Assembly: GCA_016218825.1 (NCBI GenBank)
Contig: JACRCV010000075.1
Span: 166,358 to 230,357 of the forward strand
DNA length: 64,000 nt
Direction: 5' to 3'
From: Deltaproteobacteria bacterium
GTDB taxonomy: Bacteria; Myxococcota; XYA12-FULL-58-9
In this document: in pieces, positions 827 through 63,009 of the stretch
How the letters are laid out: each line of letters begins with the position of its first letter
Numbering within the stretch: position 1 is the first letter of the stretch
The notes under the pieces: model-generated
Database searches by the model: none
What the model was told of the DNA's origin: nothing
Seen by the model: the letters and a program-made list of their open reading frames with translations, nothing else
Made by a program: the position numbers and the translations under genes

Positions 827-947
827 TTCAGGTGGACGTGATCCGGCCCCCGCCCCACTCGGGGGCGGGGGATTCAGGGGGTGGGGGTGGGGAGCGACGC
901 CGCATCGGCGGCGCGGGAATCAGATGAAGGCGAAAACGGTCTAGGCG
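827..947. repeat. structured GC-rich repeat, copy G (subfamily 2), flanked by inverted 13-mers ctagaccgtcttc / gaaaacggtctag
   Basis: Contains hairpin ccccgccccactcgggggcgggg and G-tract gggggtgggggtggggag, then gcgggaatca. About 85% similar to copy E at 46499-46600. Confidence 0.5.
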
Positions 948-6661: not shown

Positions 6662-7471
6662 ATGACGGCGGTGCTGTGGCAGGGATGGGGCGTGGAGACG
6701 GCCGAGATCGTCGATGGGTGGCTGGCGGCGCTGTTCGAGCGTCACCGCGCCAGTCTGACTTTTCAAGAAGTCCGGCGTGGGGTCCAGGCGCTGTCGCGCT
6801 CCTACGTCGAGCTGCGCGACCGGCGCCGGGCGCCCAAGGCGCTGGACGGCGCCGGCAAGCGGGCCGCGTTCGCCTGTTTCTTTACGCCGCTCCATTTTCT
6901 CCTCGTTCGTGAGCTCCTGGTGCAGCTGGCTCCGGCAGCGGTCGAGCGGGTCGTCGATCTCGGCTGTGGTTGTATGGGCGCGGGGCTGGCCTGGGCGACG
7001 GCGTCGACTACTGCGCAGACCGAGGTCCACGGTGTCGATCGCAATCGCTGGGCGCTGGACGAGGCGGCGCGCAACCTGTCGTGGTTTGGCCGCCGCGGTC
7101 GCGCGGTGCTCGGGGACCTCTGCTCCTTTCCGTCGCCGGCGGGGGCCACCGGCGTGGTCGTGGCGTTTGCCGCGAATGAGCTCGACGACGACGGTCGACA
7201 GCGCCTGCTGCAGCGGCTGCTCAGCGGGGTGGCCGCGGGCGCGTCGGTTCTGGTCGTCGAGCCCATCGCCCGCAGCTTGACCGCGCGGTGGTGGCCGGGC
7301 TGGGAGGCCGCGTTCGTGGGTGCCGGCGGACGGACCGATCTCTGGCGCTTGCCGGTCGAGCTGCCGCCGCGGCTTCGCGAGCTGGACCGGGCCGCCGGCC
7401 TGGATCACCGCGAGCTCACCGCCAGGACCCTGTACGTCGCGCGCCGCTCGGCCGACGCCGCGGTTCGTTGA
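6662..7471 (+). CDS. class I SAM-dependent methyltransferase-like protein
   Basis: ORF track 6560..7471. Motif VVDLGCGCMGAGLAW resembles SAM-binding motif I. I prefer the in-frame ATG 6662 because 6560-6661 is AT-rich, unlike any other coding DNA here. The 6560 start remains possible. Confidence 0.6.
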   Translation: MTAVLWQGWGVETAEIVDGWLAALFERHRASLTFQEVRRGVQALSRSYVELRDRRRAPKALDGAGKRAAFACFFTPLHFLLVRELLVQLAPAAVERVVDLGCGCMGAGLAWATASTTAQTEVHGVDRNRWALDEAARNLSWFGRRGRAVLGDLCSFPSPAGATGVVVAFAANELDDDGRQRLLQRLLSGVAAGASVLVVEPIARSLTARWWPGWEAAFVGAGGRTDLWRLPVELPPRLRELDRAAGLDHRELTARTLYVARRSADAAVR

Positions 7472-30430: not shown

Positions 30431-30506
30431 GCCCCCGTAGCTCAGTTGGATAGAGCGCGGGATTCCTAATCCCGGTCTGCCACAGGTTCGACTCCTGTCG
30501 GGGGCG
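30431..30506 (+). tRNA. tRNA-Arg (anticodon CCT)
   Basis: GCCCCCG-TA-GCTC-AGTTGGATA-GAGC-G-CGGGA-TTCCTAA-TCCCG-...-GGTTCGACTCC-...-CGGGGGC-G, followed by an encoded CCA. Anticodon loop TT-CCT-AA. Coordinates ±1. Confidence 0.85.
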
Positions 30507-31527
30507 CCAAGCCCTGCACCGGCACCAACGCCATCGGCCGGTCGTGGCTCAAGGCTCGCCGGCAGGCGTCGAACATCTCGGCGTGGGTCCGGGCCCGGCG
30601 CACCTCGCGCCAGAAGCTGCCGTCGGCGTCGACCCCCGGGCCGACGTAGCCCATCGCCCGCTTCACGATCTGTACGCGTTTCGCCTCCGGCAGCGTGCTC
30701 AGCGACGAGGCCTCGTAGAGATCCTCGAGATAGGCGAGCAGGTCGCGGCCGACCGGCACCGGGGCGGGGCGTGCCTCTCGGTGCGCGCGGATCTGGTCGA
30801 AGATCCACGGGTTGCGGATCGCCGCCCGGCCGATCATCACCCCGCGCGCCCCGGTGCGCGCCAGCACCGCCGCCGCCTTCGCGGCCGAGTCGATGTCGCC
30901 GTTCGCCAGCACCGGGCACGCCAGGCTCGACACCGCCTGCGCGATGCGATCGTAACGCACCTGACCATGGTAGCAGTCGGCGACCGTCCGGCCGTGCACG
31001 GTCACGAGGTCGAGCGAGTGCCGCGCCAGGATCGCGAGCAACGGCTCGAGCTCCGCGGGAGAGTCGAAGCCGAGGCGGGTCTTCACCGACAGCTTGATCG
31101 ACACCGCGGCGCGCAGCGCGCCGAGCAGGTGGTCGATGCGGCTCGGATCGCGCAACAACCCCCCGCCCGCGCGCTTGCGGTAGACGATCGGCGCCGGGCA
31201 GCCGAGGTTGAAGTCGATGCCGACGATCGGTCTTTGCTGGAGCTCCCGGGCGGTGCGCACCAGCGCCGCGGCGTCGTTGCCGATCAGCTGGGCGATGACC
31301 GGCCGGCCGGTCGGGTTGTCGTCGATCGCCCGCAGGATCGACGTCCGGGGCTTCGAGGTGCCGTGCACCCGGATGTACTCGGTGAAGTACAGATCCGCGC
31401 CGCCATAGCGGCAGATCAAGCGCCAGAAGCGCAGGTCGGTGACGTCGTGCATCGGCGCCAACGCCAGGCACGGCGTCGGTCCCCGCAAGACGTCATCGAA
31501 GGGGTTCTGCAGCGGCAGCGCCGTCAT
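30466..31527 (-). CDS. tRNA-dihydrouridine synthase (Dus family)
   Basis: ORF track. LAPMHDVTDLRFWRLICRYGGADLYFTEYI..., GIDFNLGCP, and KTRLG are Dus TIM-barrel motifs. The 3' end runs antisense into the tRNA-Arg gene. Confidence 0.85.
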   Translation of the reverse strand: MTALPLQNPFDDVLRGPTPCLALAPMHDVTDLRFWRLICRYGGADLYFTEYIRVHGTSKPRTSILRAIDDNPTGRPVIAQLIGNDAAALVRTARELQQRPIVGIDFNLGCPAPIVYRKRAGGGLLRDPSRIDHLLGALRAAVSIKLSVKTRLGFDSPAELEPLLAILARHSLDLVTVHGRTVADCYHGQVRYDRIAQAVSSLACPVLANGDIDSAAKAAAVLARTGARGVMIGRAAIRNPWIFDQIRAHREARPAPVPVGRDLLAYLEDLYEASSLSTLPEAKRVQIVKRAMGYVGPGVDADGSFWREVRRARTHAEMFDACRRALSHDRPMALVPVQGLAPPTGVEPVADRD

Positions 31528-31542: not shown

Positions 31543-32058
31543 TCAGAAGACGTAGCTGCCGAAGGCGACGATCTCGACCATCCCGAGGAACGCCGGTCGC
31601 TGGCCCATCGTCGTGCTCAGGTCGACGCCCACCTGGCCACCCACCGAGAGCTTCGCGGTCAAGAAATAGTCGGCGCCGGCGCCGAGATAGGCGCCGAGCG
31701 TCGTGAGGTTGGCGCCGATGACGTCCCAGATCCGACCGAACGACAGCTGCGCCTGCGCGAACGGCGACACCGGCAGGTCGAGGTCCGCGAGACGGTAGCG
31801 AGCGCCGGCACGCAGGCGCAGCGGCACGCTGCCGGAGACGCCGAGGTTCAGCCCCGCGACCGCCGAGAGCGACTTGTCGAACGCGTACTCGCCCTGCGCG
31901 TTTACCAACAGGTAGGCGCCGGACGCGCCCAACGCGGAGCCCAGCCGGAAGCCGGGGCCCAACGCGGCGCTGCCGATGATCGATCCGGGCTCGACCGTAA
32001 GACCCCACGCCGTGGTCGGTACCAACAGGAGTGCTACTGCTAGGAACCGAGCGCGCAT
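31543..32058 (-). CDS. small outer-membrane beta-barrel protein (paralog of 26146..26646)
   Basis: Signal MRARFLAVALLLVPTTAWG, alternating hydrophobic pattern, and C-terminal ...AFGSYVF. GGAGGG Shine-Dalgarno. 15 bp upstream of dus on the same strand. Confidence 0.6.
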   Translation of the reverse strand: MRARFLAVALLLVPTTAWGLTVEPGSIIGSAALGPGFRLGSALGASGAYLLVNAQGEYAFDKSLSAVAGLNLGVSGSVPLRLRAGARYRLADLDLPVSPFAQAQLSFGRIWDVIGANLTTLGAYLGAGADYFLTAKLSVGGQVGVDLSTTMGQRPAFLGMVEIVAFGSYVF

Positions 32059-32124
32059 CGAGCTACCCTCCGGACAGTGTGGCTTGAGGCGTAACATGGT
32101 CTATTCAACAGGTCAAACGGGCAC

Positions 32125-32290
32125 CGGCCACGACACCGGGCAATCGATTTCTCGCGTTCTTGATTCCCGGCGGGCGCTTCGCGCCCGTCCTCCCCACCCC
32201 CACCCCGGAGCGTCGCCTTCGGCGCCGCTCTCGGCCCGCCCCAGATTGGGGCGGGCAACATCGGCAAAGCCCGAGAGCTCGATCGCCCTG
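32125..32290. repeat. structured GC-rich repeat, copy B (subfamily 1, inverted relative to copy A), flanked by 9-bp direct repeat GGCCACGAC (32116-32124 and 32291-32299)
   Basis: The reverse complement is ~90% identical to copy A over ~150 bp, including terminus cagggcgatcgag, the hairpin, G-tract and cccgccgggaatca. Seen directly. Confidence 0.7.
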
Positions 32291-32311
32291 GGCCACGACG
32301 TCCTCCGCCGC

Positions 32312-33550
32312 TTGCGCCGGCTGCTCCCGACCCATGTGCAAGGTGTCCTCGCCCGCCTTCAAGATCACGGCGGTCGCGCGGTGATCGTCGGCGGCGCGGT
32401 GCGCGACGTGATGCTCGGCCGCCGGCCGCCCGACTGGGACCTCGCCACCGACCTGCGGCCCGCCGCCGTCGCGACCCTGTTCCCGCGGGTCAATCGGGCC
32501 GGGGAGAAGCACGGCACGATCATGGTGCTCACCGGCCACGGGCCGGTCGAGGTGACCACCTTCCGCGGCGAAGGGCCGTACCTCGACGGCAGGCGTCCGT
32601 CCACCGTGATCTTCCACGACGACCTCGAGGCCGACCTGGCGCGCCGCGACTTCACGATCAACGCGATCGCCGCGGATCTCGCGACGAACGAGTTCGTCGA
32701 TCCGTTCTCGGGCGAGATGGACCTGCGCCGCGGCCGAGTGCGCGCGGTCGGCGATCCGCGCCAGCGCTTCGCCGAAGACGGCCTGCGGTCGCTGCGCGCG
32801 ATCCGCCTCGCGGCCGTCCTCGGGTTCGAAATCGACAAAGCGACCAAAGACGCGCTCCCCGGCGCGGTCGAAGTCCTTCGTCAGGTCGCATGGGAGCGCC
32901 GCCGGGACGAGATGGCGCGCCTGCTCGCCGGCGCCGTGGCCCTCGCCCCCGCGGTGCGGCTGCTCGTCGACTCCGGCCTCATCCGCGAGGTCGCCGCCGA
33001 GCTCGAGCCGGCGCCGCTCAAGGCGGTGGCGAGGCTCGATCGGCTCGCGCCCGATCCCTGGCTGCGTTTGGCGGGCTGGGCAACCGCCGCCCGGCTCGAG
33101 CCACACGCCGCCGCCGGCGTCGCGACCCGGTGGCGGGCGGGAACGGCCGTCGCGCGCGCGATCGAGAGCCAAACGAAAGGCTACCAGCGCCTCGGTCGCC
33201 GCCCCCCGACTGGAGCCGCGCTCCGACTCTGGCTCGCCGAGGTCGGCCCCGAGGCGGCGCTCGGCGCCGCCGCCCTCGCCGCGGCCCTGCGCCCTGACCC
33301 TTGGCAGCGCTTCCCTGCCGCGGTGCGGCGCACTCTGGCGCGAAAGCCGTGCCTGAGCCTCGCGACCCTCGCTGTCGACGGCCACGACCTCGAGGCGGCG
33401 GGCTTCTTCGGCCCGGCCGTCGGCCGGATCCTCCAGGCCCTCCTCCGGGAGGTCCTGCACCGGCCGGCATTGAACCAAGAAACCAGGCTCTTGGCCCTTG
33501 CCCACACCTTGTCCACAGCCACCGACCCCCGTCTTGCCCTCGGACCCTGA
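32312..33550 (+). CDS. tRNA nucleotidyltransferase (CCA-adding enzyme) / poly(A) polymerase family
   Basis: AVIVGGAVRDVMLGRRPPDWDLAT...GTIMV...DFTINAIA are polymerase-beta head-domain motifs. The 5' end is uncertain (TTG 32312 or GTG 32336) because repeat copy B sits where the start would be expected. Confidence 0.75.
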   Translation: MRRLLPTHVQGVLARLQDHGGRAVIVGGAVRDVMLGRRPPDWDLATDLRPAAVATLFPRVNRAGEKHGTIMVLTGHGPVEVTTFRGEGPYLDGRRPSTVIFHDDLEADLARRDFTINAIAADLATNEFVDPFSGEMDLRRGRVRAVGDPRQRFAEDGLRSLRAIRLAAVLGFEIDKATKDALPGAVEVLRQVAWERRRDEMARLLAGAVALAPAVRLLVDSGLIREVAAELEPAPLKAVARLDRLAPDPWLRLAGWATAARLEPHAAAGVATRWRAGTAVARAIESQTKGYQRLGRRPPTGAALRLWLAEVGPEAALGAAALAAALRPDPWQRFPAAVRRTLARKPCLSLATLAVDGHDLEAAGFFGPAVGRILQALLREVLHRPALNQETRLLALAHTLSTATDPRLALGP

Positions 33551-37945: not shown

Positions 37946-37993
37946 GGCGCGCTGCGGCCTGCTTTGCTTCCCGCGCGGGAATCAAAGGATAGG
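37946..37993. repeat. repeat fragment, copy F (3' terminal part: ...cccgcgcgggaatcaaagg)
   Basis: Fills the 48-bp spacer between the convergent der and rne stop codons. Matches the cccgcSgggaatcaa(a)g end of copies A, C and E. Confidence 0.4.
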
Positions 37994-40132
37994 TCAACCG
38001 CCGAACAGCTTCTTGACGAAGCCGAGGAAGCCGCCGGTCTTCGCCGGCGGCAGTGAGGCGGCCGGCACTGCCATCGCCGGCGCGGCGCCATGGGACGGTG
38101 GGCGTTGCCCCGAGCCCGTAAGACCCGGGAGCTGGCCCTGGGTGCCCAGCTGCTCGCGGCCTCGACCCCGGCCGCGGCGACGCCGGCGGCGGCGGCTCGA
38201 GCCGCCTTCCTCGTCGGTCTCGCCGCCCGGTCGCTCGCTCGGGCCACGCTTGGGTTCGACGCCGTGCTTCACGAGATAGGCCTCGAGGTCGAGGAGCTCG
38301 AAGCTCGGCAGGCCCAGGTGGGTCGTCGGGTCGTCGCTCTTCCCGTGCTGCGGCGCGCCGCGCTTGTCGTCGGCCTCGTCCCGGCCACCGTGACGCCCGC
38401 GCCGCCGTCCGCGCCGCGAGCCCCGCTCCCCACGGTCGCCGCGATCTCCGCGCCCGCCACGCTCGCCTAGATCCTCGCGCTCCGAGGTGGCGCCGTCACC
38501 GTCGCCGGCCTCCTCCTGGTCGAGGTGCGCCTCGTCGCCGGCCTCCTCGTCGTCCGCGCCCTCGGCCTCGCGCTCCTCGGTGTCCTCGTCCTCGTCGTCG
38601 AGGGCGTCGGGATCGAAGTCCGCCGGCAGCTCCGGCGGCCCGAAGTTCGGCTCGGGCAGCGGCTGCACCACAGCGTGGGCGTTGGCCTCGAAGGTGAAGT
38701 CGTCCTGGCCCGCGACGAAGCGCGGCTCGGGGAGGATGTCGACGCGGACGTTGAAGATCCGCACCAGCTCCTGGACGTCGTTCCACTTGGTGGTGCGCAG
38801 GTGATTCGCGGCCTCGGACTCGACCTTGACGGACGCCGAGAGCAGATCGCCGCGCGCCGCCCGGTCTCGCAAGCGGCGCAGCACCGCGACCGCGTGCGAC
38901 GCCGGGTTGAGGATGTGCCCGGTGCCCTTGCACACCGGACAGGTGCGAAACACGCTGGCCTCGAGGGCGCTGCGCAGCCGCTGCCGGGTGAGCTCGAGGG
39001 TGCCGTTCGGCGAGATCCGGCCGATCTTGACCCGGGCCTTGTCGGCCTTGAAGGCCTCGCGCGCCGCGCGCTCGACCTTGCGCTCGTTGCGGCGGGACAT
39101 CATGTCGATGAAGTCAATGACGATGATGCCGCCGAGATCGCGCAAGCGCAGCTGCCGCGCCGCCTCGAAGGCCGCCTCGAGGTTGGTCCGAAGCGCGGTC
39201 TCCTCGTGGTGCGACTCTTTCTGCTTGCCGGAGTTGACGTCGATCGCGACCAGCGCCTCGGTCTGCTCGATGACCAGCGAGCCGCCGGACTTCAGCGGCA
39301 CCTTGTTGGCGTAAAGGACCTCGAGCTGCTCCTCGATGCGGTAGTGATGGAAGATCGGCCGGCGCTCGACGTAGCGCGACAACACGCTGCGCTGCTTCGG
39401 CATCACCAGGTGCATGTACTCCGCGGAGCGGTCGTAGGCGTCGTCGGAGTCGACGACGATCTCGTCGATGTCCTCGGTGAAGTAGTCGCGCAGGGCGCGG
39501 ATGACGACGTCCTGCTCTTTGAGGATGAGGGCCGGCGCCTTCGCGACCTCGGCCTCCTTGCGGATGTTCTCCCACAGCCGGGTCAGGACCTGCAGATCCC
39601 GCATCAGATCGGGCTTGGGGCGGTCGCGGCCGGCGGTGCGGATGATGAGGCCCATGCCGTCGGGGACGTCGAGGCGGGTCGCCGACTCGCGCATCCGCCG
39701 CCGGGTCTCGTCGTCCTCGATGCGGCGCGACACTCCCTGGCGGTCCTCGCCGGGCATGATGACCAGGTAGCGGCCGGCGATCGACAGGTAGGTGGTGAGC
39801 ACCGCCCCCTTGCTGCCGACCTCCTCCTTGACCACCTGCACCAGGATCTCTTGCTTCGGCTTCAAGAGCTCGTTGACCCGGTGGTACTTGTCGCGCGGCA
39901 GGCCGGCGATCTTCGGGTCGACCTCACCCGCGGTCAGGAAGCCTTCCTTCTCGGCGCCGTAGTCGACGAACGCGGCGTTCAACGCCGGCTCGACGGCGCG
40001 GACGATGGCCTTGTAGATGTTGCCCTTGTTCTTCTCGACCCCGCGGGTCTCGATGTCCAGGTTCTCGAGCACGCCCCGATCACCGAGGATGGCGATGCGC
40101 ACCTCCTCGGGGTCGATGGCGTTGATGATCAT
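37994..40132 (-). CDS. ribonuclease E/G family endoribonuclease with Arg/Asp/Glu-rich low-complexity C-terminal tail
   Basis: MIINAIDPEEVRIAILGDRG... is the S1 domain. The catalytic core resembles Rne/Rng (RNase H-like, DNase I-like, Zn-link CPVCKGTG). Start at 40132 (GGAAGA Shine-Dalgarno) or 40144. Confidence 0.9.
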   Translation of the reverse strand: MIINAIDPEEVRIAILGDRGVLENLDIETRGVEKNKGNIYKAIVRAVEPALNAAFVDYGAEKEGFLTAGEVDPKIAGLPRDKYHRVNELLKPKQEILVQVVKEEVGSKGAVLTTYLSIAGRYLVIMPGEDRQGVSRRIEDDETRRRMRESATRLDVPDGMGLIIRTAGRDRPKPDLMRDLQVLTRLWENIRKEAEVAKAPALILKEQDVVIRALRDYFTEDIDEIVVDSDDAYDRSAEYMHLVMPKQRSVLSRYVERRPIFHHYRIEEQLEVLYANKVPLKSGGSLVIEQTEALVAIDVNSGKQKESHHEETALRTNLEAAFEAARQLRLRDLGGIIVIDFIDMMSRRNERKVERAAREAFKADKARVKIGRISPNGTLELTRQRLRSALEASVFRTCPVCKGTGHILNPASHAVAVLRRLRDRAARGDLLSASVKVESEAANHLRTTKWNDVQELVRIFNVRVDILPEPRFVAGQDDFTFEANAHAVVQPLPEPNFGPPELPADFDPDALDDEDEDTEEREAEGADDEEAGDEAHLDQEEAGDGDGATSEREDLGERGGRGDRGDRGERGSRRGRRRGRHGGRDEADDKRGAPQHGKSDDPTTHLGLPSFELLDLEAYLVKHGVEPKRGPSERPGGETDEEGGSSRRRRRRRGRGRGREQLGTQGQLPGLTGSGQRPPSHGAAPAMAVPAASLPPAKTGGFLGFVKKLFGG

Positions 40133-40296
40133 TTTTCTTCCCATGGCGATTCGTTGCGGGCGCGTTTTGGGGTGCCCGTCCTCAGGTTGACCAAAGCGGC
40201 TCTGGCCGCGGTCCGATGAAGTGGAGAGACTCTCGTGAGCGCTATCCTCGTGGCGCACAAACTGTCGACCTGAACGTCGGCGACCCCCGCCGCCGG

Positions 40297-40818
40297 CTAT
40301 TTGCCCCAGTCCAGCGCCAAACCGATGCGTCCATGCAGGGTCGCGTAGGCTGGAGCTTGTAACAGGTCTGTACCGAACAGCGGGTAGTACCGCATGACGA
40401 CCCCCCAAAGCAACCAGTCAAAATGGACGACCTCGAAGCCGGCGCCGACGACGCTGACCGTCGACGTCGCCGGCACCCCGTGGCGGTTCACCGAGACGCT
40501 GACGTTGGCGACGCCGAGCTCGAGGGTCGGCGCGATCCGAAAGTCGTCGAGGCGATAGCAGAGGGTTGCGCCGAGGACGTCCACCGCCACCCCGGGCTTT
40601 CGGGTGGGGAAGGTCTGGCGATTGCCGAAGACCGTGGCCCGCAGCTGCTCGCCGAGACCCAGCTCCGCCTGGAGCCCGCCGCCGTAGCCGAAGGCGCGCC
40701 GCTCGAAGGGCGGCGCGAGGCCGCTGACCCCGGGCTCGATCGCGAGCTGCAATGAGCCGAGACCGGCGGCGTGCGCCGGGCTGAGGTGCGACGAGCCCAA
40801 GACGACCGTCACGAGCAA
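40297..40818 (-). CDS. small outer-membrane beta-barrel protein (third paralog); start uncertain
   Basis: The C-terminal 160 aa of ORF 40297..41427 resemble the other two small OMPs (signal ...LLLVTVVLGSSHLSPAHA). No ATG is in frame; only TTG 40818 or GTG 40812. Repeat copy C abuts the 5' end. Confidence 0.4.
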   Translation of the reverse strand: MLVTVVLGSSHLSPAHAAGLGSLQLAIEPGVSGLAPPFERRAFGYGGGLQAELGLGEQLRATVFGNRQTFPTRKPGVAVDVLGATLCYRLDDFRIAPTLELGVANVSVSVNRHGVPATSTVSVVGAGFEVVHFDWLLWGVVMRYYPLFGTDLLQAPAYATLHGRIGLALDWGK

Positions 40819-40837
40819 CAGCGGACGCGAAGTGCGT

Positions 40838-41036
40838 CGATGTTGCCCGCCCCACCCGGTCGGGCACCGAGCAGCTGGCTTTGCCCGTGCGAGGTGCGGG
40901 GGCACGGGGGGACGCAGAGCCGGCGCGTCACTCCGTTGTCGCCCTCGGACCACGTGCCGGCGGGCGGTCCCCCCGCCAGGTTGCTGGGGCGCCAAGCGCC
41001 CGCCGGGAATCAAAGAAGCGAGAACCAGTCGATTGC
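40838..41036. repeat. structured GC-rich repeat, copy C (subfamily 1 variant with longer, divergent centre)
   Basis: Shares 5' cgatgttgcccgccccacccgg and 3' gcgcccgccgggaatcaaagaagcgagaaccagtcgattgc with copy A. Confidence 0.55.
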
Positions 41037-41116
41037 TCTGACGCAAAGTGCGATGGAGTATAGCAATCCGCGCCTCTTCGCGGTAAGAGGCCGGATCCGA
41101 AAATCGTTTCCAGGAG

Positions 41117-46083: not shown

Positions 46084-46497
46084 ATGTCGAAGCGTCGGAT
46101 CTGTGTGGTGAGTGCCGCCTTGGTGCGTGAGGGACGCTACCTCATCACGCAGCGCCTCGAGAAGGCGGTGCTGCCGTTGTTGTGGGAGTTCCCGGGCGGC
46201 AAGGTCGAGGAAGGCGAGAGCGACGAGGTGGCGTTGAAGCGCGAGCTCAAGGAGCGCCTCGGCATCGACGCGGTGGTGAAGAAGCGCATCGCCTCCACCG
46301 AGCGGGAGTATCGCGACTACGTCGTCGAGATGCACCTGTACTCGTGCGACCTCGGGCCGGTGGAGCCGCGCAAGGTCAACGTCCGCGATCTGAAGTGGGT
46401 CAACTCCAAGGAGTTCGGCCGCTACGAGTTCACGCCCGCCGACCAGGGCTCGATGGACGCGCTGCTGTTCGGCGACAAGAAGACCGCGAAGCGTTAG
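46084..46497 (+). CDS. NUDIX hydrolase (MutT-like)
   Basis: Nudix box GGKVEEGESDEVALKRELKERLGI. GAGGAGGGGG Shine-Dalgarno. Confidence 0.85.
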   Translation: MSKRRICVVSAALVREGRYLITQRLEKAVLPLLWEFPGGKVEEGESDEVALKRELKERLGIDAVVKKRIASTEREYRDYVVEMHLYSCDLGPVEPRKVNVRDLKWVNSKEFGRYEFTPADQGSMDALLFGDKKTAKR

Positions 46498-46498
46498 G

Positions 46499-46600
46499 CC
46501 GCATGCATCACTTGATTCCCGCGCGGCCGCTGCGCCCGCGCTCCCCACCCCCACCCCCATCCCCCGCCCCCGGGTGGGGCGGGGGCGACGAACGCTGGAT
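46499..46600. repeat. structured GC-rich repeat, copy E (subfamily 2), flanked by perfect 14-bp direct repeat CGCGAAGCGTTAGG (46485-46498 and 46601-46614)
   Basis: Seen directly. The duplicated 14-mer contains the stop codons of both convergent flanking genes. Confidence 0.65.
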
Positions 46601-46609
46601 CGCGAAGCG

Positions 46610-47434
46610 TTAGGCGCGCTTCAAGATCCAGTCGGCGATCTCGGCGTGGAGCTTCACGCGCCCGGTCTCGTTCAGGATCTCGTGCATCTCGCCGTCGCGC
46701 CGCCACACGGTCTTGTCGGGCGATTGGATCCGCTCGGCGAAGGCGGCGTTGGCCGCCATTGACACCACGCGGTCGCGCTCGGCGTAGGCGAACAACAACG
46801 GTTGCTCGACGCGGTCGCGGGCGGCGAGGCGCGCCCACGCGGTCTGCACCGCCTTGAACCAGCCGGCGGACGCGGTGGTGAACACCAGCGGGTCGCTGCG
46901 ATAGGCCTCGACGATGCTCCGGTCGTGGGTCAGGTCGTTCGGGTCGATGCCCGAGGGCAGCGTCATCGTCGGCAACAACGCGCCCAGGATCCGGCCGGCG
47001 AGGATCTTCGCCTTCGGCACCGAGGCCGGCAGACCCAACATCGGGCTGGTGATGACGAGACCCGCCCAGGGTGTCTTCTTGCTCGAGACGTAGTCGAGCG
47101 CCACCAGACCGCCGGCGGAGTGCCCGAGCAGGAAGCGCTTCTGGCCCTGGACCAGGGTGAGCGCCGCGTCGACGTCGAGGTGGTACTCCTCGAAGCGCTT
47201 GACGTAGCCGCGCCGGCCGCTCGAGGTGCCGTGGCCGCGCAGATCGACCGCCACCACGGCGATGCCCTTGGCGCAGAAGGCTTCGGCGAGCTCCCGGTAG
47301 CGTCCCGAGTGCTCGGCGTAGCCGTGCAGCACCAGGACCTCGGCCGTGGCGGCGGCCGGGGGCGCAAAGCGCTGGGCGAACAGGGCGGCGCCGTCTGCGG
47401 CGCGTAACGTCGTCTCGGTGTGCGACATGGTCAT
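46610..47434 (-). CDS. alpha/beta-hydrolase (lysophospholipase/monoacylglycerol-lipase-like)
   Basis: Internal start MTMSHTETT... of ORF 46610..47809. HGYAEHSGRY and GHSAGG (GxSxG nucleophile). Confidence 0.8.
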   Translation of the reverse strand: MTMSHTETTLRAADGAALFAQRFAPPAAATAEVLVLHGYAEHSGRYRELAEAFCAKGIAVVAVDLRGHGTSSGRRGYVKRFEEYHLDVDAALTLVQGQKRFLLGHSAGGLVALDYVSSKKTPWAGLVITSPMLGLPASVPKAKILAGRILGALLPTMTLPSGIDPNDLTHDRSIVEAYRSDPLVFTTASAGWFKAVQTAWARLAARDRVEQPLLFAYAERDRVVSMAANAAFAERIQSPDKTVWRRDGEMHEILNETGRVKLHAEIADWILKRA

Positions 47435-55502: not shown

Positions 55503-55508
55503 CGGCGG

Positions 55509-55552
55509 CGGGGCGGGCAACATCGGTCCAACTCGAGAGCTCGATCGCCTTG
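55509..55552. repeat. repeat fragment, copy D (44-bp 5'-terminal piece of subfamily 1, inverted; possible internally deleted element 55487-55552)
   Basis: The reverse complement caaggcgatcgagctctcgagttggaccgatgttgcccgcccc matches the first 44 bp of copy A with one mismatch. Confidence 0.6.
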
Positions 55553-55619
55553 GGCGGTGGGAAGGATCGACTTGCCGGGTCGGCGCCTGCTTGCTACACC
55601 CCGATGCGGAGGAGCGGCG

Positions 55620-61368: not shown

Positions 61369-63009
61369 ATGAAGCTCACCCCCTGGTCAAGGCGATCGAG
61401 TTCTCGAGTTGGACCGATGTTGCCCGCCCCACCCGGGGGCGGGCCGAGAGCGGCGCCGCAGGCGACGCTCCGGGGTGGGGGTGGGGAGGACGGGCGCGAA
61501 GCGCCCGCCGGGAATCAAAGAAGCGAGAGCGCGATTGCCCTGACCCCCTGGTGCCGGCTCCTTGCCATCGTTGCGCTGTCGATCGGCGGCTGTGCCCGCG
61601 AGCTCCCGGGCGACACGCCGCCGGGCAAGGCGTTCTACTACCCGGTCAGCGTCACGGTGGCGCCGAACGGCCTCCATGCCTACGTCGTCAGCTCGAACTT
61701 CGACCTGCACTACAGCTCGGGCTGGGTCTCGGTCGTGAGCCTCGAGAGCCTCTTGGACGGCTTGCCCATCGAGACCACGGTGGTCTCCGAGGCGAAGGTG
61801 CTGTCGCTCGCGGGCGGGCTGAGCCTGTCGCGAAGCGGCACGATGGCGGTCACCGCGCACCGCGGCGCCGCGGCGCTGTCGCTGCTCGAGATCGGTGACG
61901 ACGGCAAGACGATCGGCTGCGGCGTCCAGGGCGACACCACGGATCTCAGCTACAAGGAGCGGCTCACCGACTGCGATCGCGCCCACATGCTGCAGACCGC
62001 GTGCACCGCGCCGCAGCTCGAGGACGCCGATCGGCCCGCCGGCTGTCCCTGGGAGCAAGACGGCGGACGTCGGGTGTTCGGGACGTCGCTCAACGATCTC
62101 GAGCTCGCCGACCCGTTCGCGACCGCGATCTTCGAGGTGCCGGCGGCGAGCGGCGGCACCGAGCCGTTGCTCGCGGTTTCCCACTTGACCAGTGGCGACC
62201 CGTCCGTCGGCCAGACCAACCAGCTGCTGCTCTTCGACGTCGAGTCCGGCACGACGGCGGGCGAGTCGGTCGTCTTGGCGCCGCGGCACGCGGTGCGGCT
62301 GGGAGGTGGCGGCAACCTGGGTGTCGCCGCGCTCGCGGTGCGCTCCGACGCTGCCGGCACGTTCCTCGCCGCTGCCACCCAAAAGGCCTTCACCGGCGAG
62401 TCGCAGGATCCGAGCGCGGTCTACGTCGTCGACGTGACCAGGACGCTTTCCGACCAGCAGGACCGGGTGTCATCCCATTCAATCAATGCCGAGGTCGGCG
62501 GTGTGAACCTGGCCGGGATCACCTTCGCCGCGAACAACCCCGACCTGGCGTTCGTGACCAACCGTATTCCCGACAGCGTCGTGACCTTGGACACGTCGAT
62601 CGAGACCGTCGACGAGCGCGACTCGCTCGGGACCGTGACGGTCGCGCGTCGGCCGCGCTTCGCGGTGCTCTCGGCGCAGGCCTTGCAGCCGCGTCCGGCG
62701 GGGCTGCTCTACGTCACCCGGGCGGCGGGGGAGGATCTGCTGGCGGTCGCGAGCTTCGCCGACAACGTGGTCTACCTGTTCTCGGTGCATGGGAGCGAGC
62801 TGCGCCCGACCGGGCGCCTGCCGGTGCCGGGGTACGGCCCGTTCGCTCTCGCGCACGTCGCCCGCGACGGCAGCGACTTCCTGCTGGTGACGACGTTCTT
62901 CACCCATGCGCTGGTGGTCTTCGACGTCACCGGCGACGACGCCGCGCGGTTCCGGTACGTGACCGAGCTCCGGTCGGGCGTGCCGCCGGCCGGCGATCCG
63001 GCGCGGTAG
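61369..63009 (+). CDS. YVTN-type beta-propeller lipoprotein whose signal-peptide coding region carries an in-frame repeat insertion
   Basis: ORF track. Codons 1-6 read MKLTPW. The 152-bp element plus duplication (165 bp, in frame) follows, then ...LTPWCRLLAIVALSIGGC lipobox. Downstream are YVTN-like 40-residue repeats. Confidence 0.6.
   Translation: MKLTPWSRRSSSRVGPMLPAPPGGGPRAAPQATLRGGGGEDGREAPAGNQRSESAIALTPWCRLLAIVALSIGGCARELPGDTPPGKAFYYPVSVTVAPNGLHAYVVSSNFDLHYSSGWVSVVSLESLLDGLPIETTVVSEAKVLSLAGGLSLSRSGTMAVTAHRGAAALSLLEIGDDGKTIGCGVQGDTTDLSYKERLTDCDRAHMLQTACTAPQLEDADRPAGCPWEQDGGRRVFGTSLNDLELADPFATAIFEVPAASGGTEPLLAVSHLTSGDPSVGQTNQLLLFDVESGTTAGESVVLAPRHAVRLGGGGNLGVAALAVRSDAAGTFLAAATQKAFTGESQDPSAVYVVDVTRTLSDQQDRVSSHSINAEVGGVNLAGITFAANNPDLAFVTNRIPDSVVTLDTSIETVDERDSLGTVTVARRPRFAVLSAQALQPRPAGLLYVTRAAGEDLLAVASFADNVVYLFSVHGSELRPTGRLPVPGYGPFALAHVARDGSDFLLVTTFFTHALVVFDVTGDDAARFRYVTELRSGVPPAGDPAR
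61388..61539. repeat. structured GC-rich repeat, copy A (subfamily 1, reference copy), flanked by 13-bp direct repeats ctCaccccctggt (61375-61387) and ctGaccccctggt (61540-61552)
   Basis: Termini caaggcgatcgag ... gcgcgattgcc form imperfect terminal inverted repeats (GGCRATCG). Hairpin gcccgcccc-acccg-ggggcgggc. G-tract ggggtgggggtggggagg at 61473-61490. Confidence 0.75.

Follow-up and report, generated by a model that had tools for sequence, protein, structure and literature searches.

The window, by which we mean the whole 64-kb stretch of DNA that was analysed, contains a cca gene and, divergent from it, a gene for an OMP beta-barrel protein. A short repeated element, which we call copy B, lies close to the 5′ end of cca. 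The features of this locus are as follows.

31543–32058, minus strand: OMP beta-barrel gene (MRARFLAVALLLV...), divergent from cca; synteny here is shared with the ortholog loci
32086–32089, plus strand: GAGG, a Shine-Dalgarno-like motif 6 nt before the ancestral cca ATG (anti-SD duplex −5.6 kcal/mol)
32096–33550, plus strand: cca read-through ORF of 484 aa plus stop, the 55-codon insertion included
32096–32134, plus strand: first 13 cca codons (MVYSTGQTGTGHD), upstream of the element, with start ATG 32096; they correspond to ortholog N-termini
32111–32116, minus strand: GGTCAA (TTGACC on the minus strand), overlapping cca codons 6–7 and left untouched by the insertion
32126–32135, no strand: left target-site duplication (GGCCACGAC plus A), matching the right copy at 9/9 positions, or 9/10 as a 10-mer
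32136–32290, plus strand: MITE copy B, 155 nt, with terminal inverted repeats CCGGGCAATCGATTTCTCGCG ... CGAGAGCTCGATCGCCCTG and 52 codons in frame
32160–32255, plus strand: core module within the MITE, consisting of TTGATTCCCG, hairpin 1, CTCCCCACCCCCACCCC, hairpin 2 and hairpin 3
32246–32248, plus strand: TTG, the sole in-frame canonical start codon within the element, in the loop of hairpin 3 (anti-SD −1.7 kcal/mol)
32291–32300, no strand: right target-site duplication (GGCCACGAC plus G), encoding G66-H67-D68, where the first modelled helix begins
32312–32314, plus strand: TTG proposed as a start by the initial annotation, encoding L73 within helix 66–76
32336–32338, plus strand: GTG proposed in the same place, encoding V81 within helix 79–90
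32381–32383, plus strand: GTG start in the NCBI annotation (MBI5510104.1, 389 aa), encoding V96 of the first beta strand

Copy B is flanked by the 9-nt direct repeat GGCCACGAC at 32126–32134 and 32291–32299, with 156 nt between the two and a period of 165 nt. The 9-bp repeats had already been recognised, but the length of 166 bp given with them was off by one. Over 153 nt, positions 32138–32290 were 89% identical to positions 61388–61540 (minus strand) of a second copy in the window.

61388–61542, minus strand: MITE copy A, with the exact 10-nt target-site duplication ACCCCCTGGT at 61378–61387 and 61543–61552 (period 165)

Copy B is a true repeat, as had been proposed, and each copy has its own flanking duplication. 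Because the duplications at copies A and B differ in sequence, chance is excluded. In both copies the ends close a stem, which in copy B is formed by the left end GGGCAATCGATTTCTCGCG pairing with the right end CGAGAGCTCGATCGCCC, and the predicted fold of copy B reached −83 kcal/mol (z = −5.2). With 155–156 nt and no transposase gene, the element is of bacterial MITE size. The 89% repeat, the terminal inverted repeats and the 9–10-nt target-site duplication together identify copy B as a MITE, that is, a 155-nt non-autonomous transposon with ISAs1-like CAGGG-type ends. Five of its six reading frames are open. This was set aside as evidence of adaptation to coding, since 18% of random genomic 156-mers have at least five open frames.

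The insertion point lies between cca codons 13 and 14. The element and the duplication add 165 nt, or 55 codons, without a stop codon, so the reading frame of cca is preserved; as previously reported, the frame is open back to 31976. Minus these 165 nt, the window reads MVYSTGQTGTGHDVLRRLRRLLP and is collinear with the orthologs. The 429-aa protein of the excised window aligns collinearly with 37 orthologs, and the 55-aa insert is absent from all of them (0/37). The earlier proposal that a mobile element had inserted at the 5′ end of cca is therefore supported, and the insertion has thrown off the NCBI annotation.

Alignment with orthologs, which had been suggested for finding the ancestral start of cca, led to ATG 32096, a codon missed by the initial annotation. 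Four GC-rich orthologous loci (L001, L002, L050 and L051) have an in-frame ATG at the matching place in their DNA. Their N-termini read M-x(3-4)-G-Q-[TI]; that of the window reads M-x4-G-Q-T and is encoded upstream of the element. Annotated N-termini of the form M-x(1-6)-[GS]-Q-[TIF] were found in 13 of the 37 close orthologs. At the four loci the ATG lies 9–12 nt before a conserved GGTCAA and 22–37 nt from the divergent OMP gene, and the layout of the window is the same, with a 37-nt gap between the cca ATG and the OMP gene. For L001 and L051, no other canonical start precedes the conserved A-L-x-R-L-R-R-W-x-P helix. Judged from these alignments, the ancestral cca start is ATG 32096 with GAGG 6 nt upstream, both intact and both 5′ of the element. 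The element was said to lie on the expected start of translation, immediately before the first residues recognisable as CCA enzyme. It lies instead 13 codons into the gene, and the conserved M-x4-G-Q-T is encoded before it. Nor does the ribosome-binding site appear to derive from the element, as had been thought: GAGG 32086–32089 is intact upstream of it, and the distance to the OMP gene fits the four orthologous loci.

The GGTCAA hexamer was kept at the DNA level at all four loci and was also found in the non-coding spacer of another locus (L052). We infer a promoter role for it, as a likely candidate for the −35 box of the OMP gene. The codons of G-Q-T may owe their conservation to the −35 box that they would form for the opposite gene, rather than to the protein.

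The cca product matched PF01743 (PolyA_pol head; 1.1e-32) and PF12627 (RNA-binding domain; 2.5e-07), with a weak, sub-threshold match to tRNA_NucTran2_2. It could be aligned over residues 82–467 with the CCA enzyme of Bacillus stearothermophilus (PDB 1MIV; E = 1.8e-49). The GGxVRD and DxD motifs are intact, and the invariant G99, G100, R103, D113 and D115 are all there. By sequence, the product is assigned to the class II CCA-adding enzymes of the PolyA_pol superfamily; its specificity for CCA, rather than CC or A addition, is putative. In the AlphaFold model (pTM 0.84), residues 1 to about 62 had a pLDDT of only 31–50. Confident modelling ran from residue 66 to about residue 470, with pLDDT above 95 across the enzyme, and helix 66–76 starts at the target-site duplication. 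As GTG 32381 encodes V96 of the first beta strand, MBI5510104.1 is truncated; it is 95 residues shorter than the read-through ORF.

That the NCBI annotation gives only a truncated product would suit a different explanation, in which the insertion inactivated this copy of cca and another nucleotidyltransferase gene is present elsewhere, or in which the junction is an artefact of MAG assembly. We regard this as highly improbable. The 484-codon ORF is intact, every family-invariant residue is present and the model is confident, which also speaks against the decaying paralog considered earlier, and a second gene of the PolyA_pol type was not found within the 64-kb window. As for an artefact, the sequences on either side of the element come from one syntenic locus: the left flank holds the OMP gene and 13 cca codons, and the right flank holds the remaining cca. 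They are joined by a perfect 9-nt duplication, and a chimeric join would not yield such a junction.

Other members of the family are also found inside genes. The census of the 64-kb window gave two full copies, one solo end fragment and the following long variant.

40837–41040, minus strand: F41, a longer variant of 204 nt, sharing its left end and core start with the family

A gene for a secreted beta-barrel protein carries F41 in frame at its 5′ end. This variant is flanked by 12-nt direct repeats (11/12 matching) at 41041–41052 and 40825–40836, and its period is 216 nt, or 72 codons; across the variant copies, the direct repeats were 12 and 15 nt long. Copy A sits in frame after codon 6 of a lipoprotein gene (61369–63009) and splits the n-region of the signal peptide. 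None of four orthologs of this lipoprotein (P0121) carries the insert, and the public gene model begins at an ATG inside the element. A further case, seen at the protein level, is MutL (P0126), which is encoded on another contig of the same MAG, whose protein accessions include MBI5509213.1, MBI5510104.1 and MBI5510127.1. Here the element peptide occupies residues 374–422, between PF01119 (residues 235–339) and PF08676 (residues 432–544), and one ORF is continuous across it. The two MutL domains belong to a single ORF only when the element is translated with them, so read-through is required in MutL. Besides cca, three genes thus have in-frame copies: those for the lipoprotein (in the signal peptide), the secreted protein and MutL (in the linker). 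The inserts of 165 nt (cca and the lipoprotein gene) and 216 nt (F41) are open in the frame of the host gene. The sites are permissive for folding in cca (the disordered tail before helix 66–76), MutL (between domains) and the lipoprotein (the n-region).

Outside the window, a 75%-identical copy was found on metagenome contig L045. A search of a plasmid collection with the element gave no match, and a scan of a genome collection with TTGATTCCCGGCGGGCGC gave 42 loci, all of them chance 18–20-mers beyond which there was no similarity. The joined translation of the five open frames had no match in a protein database; low-complexity proteins probably swamped the candidate list. No transposase gene with matching ends, or cognate autonomous IS, was found within the 64-kb window.

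The MITE sits inside cca with the frame kept, and we consider it probable that the old promoter and ATG 32096 still serve the gene, which would be read through the element. Transcription of cca would come from the old promoter region, which is intact and common to the divergent OMP gene, and translation would run from ATG 32096 straight across the element. The product would be an enzyme of 484 aa, its disordered N-terminal tail lengthened by 55 residues, with the folded enzyme starting exactly at the right-hand duplication. Such a protein would have the N-terminus MVYSTGQTGTGHDTGQSISR (MVYSTGQT...) and would give peptides of the insert and the N-terminus such as ATSAKPESSIALGHDVLR.

We infer present-day ribosome initiation at 32096, although several points weigh against read-through. 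The open frame is weak evidence by itself: in this genome of 71% GC, about 60% of frames stay open over 156 nt, and the 3n length is fixed across the family. With −5.6 kcal/mol, the ATG pairs with the anti-SD only a little more strongly than the genome background does on average (mean −4.2 kcal/mol). A structure of −83 kcal/mol 39 nt past the start could also hinder translation.

If the insertion uncoupled the old start, the enzyme would now be made from TTG 32312 or GTG 32336, the 68 upstream codons would be an untranslated or irrelevant leader, and transcription would pass through the element or arise from it. Upstream frames that stay open are no rarity in DNA as GC-rich as this and, as noted previously, no in-frame ATG follows the element, none occurring before the catalytic GGAVRD motif. 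In the alignment with 1MIV, query residue 82 is matched with residue 9, so initiation at TTG 32312 would yield a protein with an N-terminus of canonical length, that of the Bacillus stearothermophilus enzyme; this protein could be functional. Several orthologs (P0015-17 and P0023) are annotated from an internal Met near there. However, L050 is also annotated from an internal Met, yet its DNA has an upstream in-frame ATG and G-Q-T. The anti-SD pairing of TTG 32312 (−0.5 kcal/mol) and GTG 32336 (−1.7 kcal/mol) is near nil and below the genome mean. Both codons lie within confidently modelled helices, and L73, encoded by TTG 32312, is Leu in at least 90% of orthologs. Neither codon can be element-derived, as had been suggested for the start codon, because both belong to the native DNA that follows the right target-site duplication. 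A scan of 31900–32450 found no sigma-70 promoter or intrinsic terminator; an outward promoter borne by the element, assumed earlier, is therefore unsupported. Finally, the same family lies in frame between the MutL domains, where one ORF needs read-through. We judge a start at either codon to be rather unlikely.

Both codons are in frame, as the initial annotation had it, but a further in-frame TTG, at 32246 within the element, had been missed. A start there would be truly element-derived. It would preserve helix 66–76 behind a 15-residue tail encoded by the element, it would use the sole canonical in-frame start within the element, and its hairpin-loop position could make the codon accessible. 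Nevertheless, such a start seems very improbable. There is no Shine-Dalgarno complementarity (−1.7 kcal/mol), the codon is embedded in a GC hairpin of −18 kcal/mol, and 150 nt before it, in frame, there is an intact ATG preceded by GAGG.

The core module was found with differing hairpin-1 stems in the window and on metagenome contigs L045–L048, and the core alone also adjoins the ends of genes in unrelated metagenomes. With TTGATTCCCG, a covarying hairpin, CTCCCCACCCCCACCCC and a further hairpin, it could act in cis as an RNA or DNA element of an undescribed kind, and it is a candidate new structured motif. At the gathering score, Rfam 15 gave tRNA only in the window and no match for the element or its core; with permissive settings, the best sub-threshold matches of either had E of about 0.8–0.9. 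No core was found in a scan of viral contigs. A role of the core as a sense-strand terminator is not claimed, because its orientation in L048 is antisense to the genes on both sides.

It is possible, and we suggest it tentatively, that the family is compatible with coding by design or selection, as in "selfish DNA in proteins" of the Rickettsia type. It would be mainly intragenic, prefer the first few codons and include two housekeeping genes, cca and mutL, among its hosts, with a core that is maybe cis-acting. Two public gene models of this MAG, those of cca and the lipoprotein gene, are corrected here, and it seems that a MITE near a start codon misleads human readers and pipelines alike. 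The locus also offers a simple case of a ribosome facing a −83 kcal/mol, proline- and arginine-rich insert 13 codons past the start.

Compared with known systems, the cca product shares the PolyA_pol head and the RNA-binding domain with the class II CCA enzyme 1MIV. The clade of this cca has an extra N-terminal helix and tail that are absent from 1MIV, and the 55-residue element-encoded insert is in this gene alone. Insertion sequences of the ISAs1 family have 14–22-bp inverted repeats starting with CAGGG and a 10-bp direct repeat (PMC11946415). Similarly, the left end of copy A (CAGGGCAATCG) and the reverse complement of the right end of copy B (CAGGGCGATCG) start with CAGGG, the left end of copy B being mutated to CCGGG. 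The 10-bp direct repeat is also shared, and the family agrees with what ISAs1 would lead one to expect (CAGGG ends and a direct repeat of 8–10 bp). It differs in the variant copies with 12- and 15-nt direct repeats and in that no transposase with these ends is in the window. An ISAs1-family insertion sequence is a possible mobilising partner.

Enterobacterial MITEs of the ERIC/RU/YPAL type can be intragenic and carry open reading frames (Delihas 2007, PMC2759123; Delihas 2011, PMC3184786). They resemble the present family in small size, terminal inverted repeats, several open frames and occasional in-frame gene fusions. They belong to another sequence family and host and are mostly intergenic, whereas every copy here with the inverted-repeat left end is intragenic.

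The Rickettsia palindromic elements (RPEs; Ogata et al. 2000), as summarised in a review (PMC10969869), are palindromic repeats of about 150 bp found in frame in unrelated housekeeping genes. On that account, the two families are alike in size, palindromic structure and in-frame location in such genes, where a peptide is added at positions compatible with the fold, and in both there are orthologs without the insert. In contrast, the present element is very GC-rich and resides in a MAG of free-living type, deltaproteobacterial or Myxococcota-like. Its target-site duplications are clear and its inverted ends are of the CAGGG type, three of four copies sit in the first 14 codons of their gene, and four in-frame copies are known here against the dozens given for RPEs in that summary. 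Homology of sequence is not expected, given 72% GC here and the AT-rich genomes of Rickettsia. The resemblance is proposed as functional analogy, with no claim of membership by sequence. Selfish DNA placed in frame within genes, a phenomenon already described and most familiar from Rickettsia, is thus found in a new, GC-rich deltaproteobacterial or Myxococcota-like lineage, where it touches the essential or housekeeping genes cca and mutL.

The DNA enclosed by the duplications of copy B, a 155-nt non-autonomous miniature transposon (MITE) at 32136-32290 in cca, is a genuine repeat. The initial annotation had described an element between 9-bp direct repeats, and both parts of that description held. 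GGCCACGAC was found at 32126-32134 and again at 32291-32299, at a spacing of 165 nt, and positions 32138-32290 were 89% identical over 153 nt to 61388-61540 (-). The second full copy, copy A (61388-61542, -), was flanked by an exact 10-nt duplication, ACCCCCTGGT (61378-61387 and 61543-61552), and the spacing was likewise 165 nt. Taken as 10-mers, the duplications of copy B matched at nine of ten positions. The elements end in inverted repeats, (C/A)GGGCAATCG on the left and, as the reverse complement, CA(G/A)GGCGATCG on the right. The paired ends form the closing stem of a fold of -83 kcal/mol (z = -5.2 versus shuffles). The GC content of the window is 71%.

The open reading frame carrying copy B encodes a class II nucleotidyltransferase, with matches to Pfam PolyA_pol (1.1e-32) and PolyA_pol_RNAbd. 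Its best solved relative is the CCA-adding enzyme of Bacillus stearothermophilus (1MIV, E = 1.8e-49), and the protein-database entries closest to it were 46-60% identical. These relatives repeatedly start with M-x(1-6)-[GS]-Q-[TIF] (13 of 37 are annotated so), and 7-17 residues further on comes A-L-x-R-L-R-R-W-x-P, followed by the first canonical helix. In the window, ATG 32096 gives MVYSTGQTGTGHD, which carries the N-terminal motif; the element begins right after it, and beyond the element the frame continues with GHDVLRRLRRLLPTHVQGVLARL. When the 165 nt are removed, the product reads MVYSTGQTGTGHDVLRRLRRLLP and is collinear with all 37 orthologs, none of which has an insert at this site. Alignment with orthologous cca genes thus placed the ancestral start at ATG 32096.

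The DNA of orthologous cca loci showed the same layout. In four GC-rich loci (L001, L002, L050 and L051), a divergent gene for an outer-membrane protein (OMP) beta-barrel starts 22-37 nt from an in-frame ATG, and a conserved GGTCAA lies 9-12 nt past that ATG; the corresponding distance from the OMP gene start to ATG 32096 is 37 nt. L001 and L051 offer no other canonical start upstream of the conserved helix. The L050 protein is annotated from an internal Met, and its DNA has the upstream ATG and G-Q-T in frame. GAGG lies 6 nt upstream of ATG 32096, and the anti-SD duplex energy was -5.6 kcal/mol for this codon, -1.7 for GTG 32336 and -0.5 for TTG 32312. Because ortholog N-termini, the layout of the four loci and GAGG all put the ancestral start upstream, copy B sits 13 codons inside cca and does not occupy the expected translation start, as had been claimed. 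We consider it very probable that the anatomy is that of an intragenic, in-frame MITE with the ancestral start intact.

The 165 nt add 55 codons in the cca frame, TGQSISRVLDSRRALRARPPHPHPGASPSAPLSARPRLGRATSAKPESSIALGHD, with zero stops. We modelled the 484-residue read-through protein with AlphaFold2 from a 42-sequence alignment (pTM 0.84). With pLDDT of 31-50, residues 1 to about 62 were disordered; confident modelling set in with a helix (66-76, GHDVLRRLRRL) that started exactly at the right-hand duplication, and the remaining enzyme had pLDDT above 95. All family-invariant residues were present; therefore, this is not a decaying gene copy, an alternative that the initial annotation had raised. 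Its other observations, that TTG 32312 and GTG 32336 are in frame, that the frame has no later ATG before the catalytic motif and that it is open back to 31976, were confirmed. The downstream candidate starts fall within the folded part:

Candidate start codons of cca downstream of the element
32312, TTG: L73, a Leu conserved in at least 90% of orthologs, inside helix 1
32336, GTG: V81, inside helix 2
32381, GTG: NCBI start (MBI5510104.1, 389 aa, MIVGGAVRD...), V96, in the first beta strand of the head domain

The NCBI start drops both conserved N-terminal helices, and the 389-aa model is almost certainly too short.

The start of the cca coding sequence may also serve the divergent gene, whose putative promoter it overlaps (32090-32117). 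TTGACC, on the opposite strand, coincides with the G-Q-T codons. On the minus strand, TTGACC is followed after 17 nt by TAC(G/C)(C/G)C at the same relative position in all four GC-rich loci, and the low-GC relative L052 has GTCAAAC in a non-coding intergenic spacer. Since the spacing is kept in four loci and GTCAAAC occurs in the L052 spacer, TTGACC probably serves as the -35 box in the OMP promoter. Overlap with this putative promoter would explain why a GC-rich gene uses the rare codons GGT and CAA. Some of the apparent protein conservation of G-Q-T may thus be conservation at the DNA level; despite this, the ATG is kept in frame in all four loci. The MITE inserted 18 nt beyond the putative -35 box and left it intact.

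We lean towards the following reading as a whole. Transcription of cca would come from the old promoter, necessarily within or upstream of the 5′ region of the OMP gene, initiation would occur at ATG 32096, and translation through the element would leave the enzyme normal apart from a lengthened disordered tail. The openness of the element is in itself weak evidence, because open frames are common in such GC-rich DNA (about 60% of frames are open in 156-mers, and 18% of 156-mers have at least five open frames) and the 3n length is a fixed property of the MITE family. In addition, the anti-SD energy of ATG 32096 was only modestly better than background. Residue 9 of 1MIV aligns with query residue 82, where the alignment starts, so that initiation at TTG 32312 would yield a product whose N-terminus is canonical and which might be functional. 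A start or promoter supplied by the element, as suggested initially, found no support. The sole truly element-derived start codon, TTG 32246, lies in a strong hairpin and lacks Shine-Dalgarno complementarity, and a scan for promoter-like sites turned up none in the element. As proposed, the insertion remodelled the 5′ end of cca, but it did not replace the expression signals of the gene.

The region around cca holds many genes for tRNA and RNA maturation (dus, cca, mnmA and RNase III). A tRNA gene at 30431-30506 (+) (Rfam RF00005, 62 bits) lies just beyond, and overlaps, the 3′ (stop-codon) end of the dihydrouridine synthase gene 30466-31527 (-).

Other copies of the family also lie within genes. 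Copy A is in a lipoprotein gene (ORF 61369-63009, +), in the opposite orientation, relative to its host gene, to copy B. Four orthologs of this gene start with an ordinary lipoprotein signal peptide, some 20 residues long. In the window protein, MKLTPW is followed by 55 residues and then TPWCRLLAIVALSIGGCARELPG (also given as TPWCRLLAIVALSIGGC); copy A therefore split the signal peptide in frame after codon 6. NCBI places the start of this gene (MBI5510127.1, HY903_15325) at an ATG within copy A; the stretch from the element to the hydrophobic core has no canonical start codon. A third relative is a longer variant:

40837-41040 (-): F41, 204 nt, with the same left end and the same core start

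F41 has the left end CAGAGCAATCG...TTGATTCCCGGCGGGCGC, differs in its interior, terminates at GGGGCGGGCAACATCGA and lacks the right inverted repeat. The direct repeats that flank it, CGCACTTTGCGT and CGCACTTCGCGT, are 12 nt long and agree at 11 positions (whole span 40825-41052, -); their period of 216 nt equals 72 codons. F41 sits at the 5′ end of a gene for a secreted beta-barrel protein, whose frame stays open across it, and a TTG in the left repeat would start a neat signal peptide, MRPLLLVTVVLGSSHLSPAHA.

A search of the protein database with the lipoprotein sequence revealed a further copy in MutL (MBI5509213.1) on another contig of the same MAG. The element peptide GPMLPAPPGGGPRAAPQATLRGGGGEDGREAPAGNQKGENSIAL occupies residues 374-422, in the linker between DNA_mis_repair (235-339) and MutL_C (432-544), and is in frame within one ORF holding both domains. 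No further carrier emerged when 1.84 billion representative proteins were scanned in full. The MutL_C motif of this protein is VDRDAALHRLAYE; the usual motif is a DQHAxxE-type sequence. All copies with the left-end inverted repeat were intragenic and in frame. A solo right-end fragment, GGGGCGGGCAACATCGGTCCAACTCGAGAGCTCGATCGCCTTG (55507-55561, +), lies just past the stop of a gene ending ...FKRLCDR*.

Internally, the MITE has a core: TTGATTCCCG, hairpin 1, CTCCCCACCCCCACCCC, an optional hairpin 2 and a hairpin CCCCGCCCC-loop-GGGGCGGGG. Further copies of the core, most of them lacking the inverted ends, lie in the window and in unrelated metagenome contigs:

Copies of the core
46513-46585 (+), window: core without inverted ends
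847-922 (-), window: core without inverted ends
260-339, contig L046: core without inverted ends
604-645 and about 1809-1855, contig L047: core without inverted ends
7148-7222, contig L048: core without inverted ends
546-644, metagenome contig L045: core within a full MITE-like copy, 75% identical

The flanking motifs are invariant. The stem sequence of hairpin 1 differs in almost every copy and its pairing is always kept, with compensatory changes in 6 of 14 predicted pairs. No Rfam family matched the core, and a scan of viral contigs found no copy. The complementary strand has G-quadruplex potential. On either side of the core at 46513-46585 stands an exact direct repeat of 15 nt, CGCGAAGCGTTAGGC (46485-46499 and 46601-46615), at odds with the 10-nt duplication of the MITE copies; two convergent genes have overlapping stop codons there, which the repeat doubles, and so it leaves both C-termini intact. 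A perfect palindrome containing TTGATTCCCG, TTGCTTCCCGCGCGGGAATCAA (37964-37985), lies just past the stop of a large gene (ORF 37994-40408, -) and may be a core remnant or a terminator.

In insertion sequences of the ISAs1 family, the inverted repeats begin with CAGGG and the direct repeat is 10 bp long (PMC11946415). The MITE shares CAGGG-type ends and a 10-nt duplication, and was probably derived from an ISAs1-family element. Intragenic, in-frame behaviour has been described for Rickettsia palindromic elements (RPEs; review PMC10969869) and, more rarely, for other MITEs (Delihas, PMC2759123 and PMC3184786). Besides correcting public annotations and bringing a conserved core motif to light, our analysis identifies the cca element as an RPE-like in-frame MITE in an uncultivated deltaproteobacterial MAG, which adds a free-living GC-rich lineage, and the genes cca and mutL, to the known range of the RPE phenomenon.
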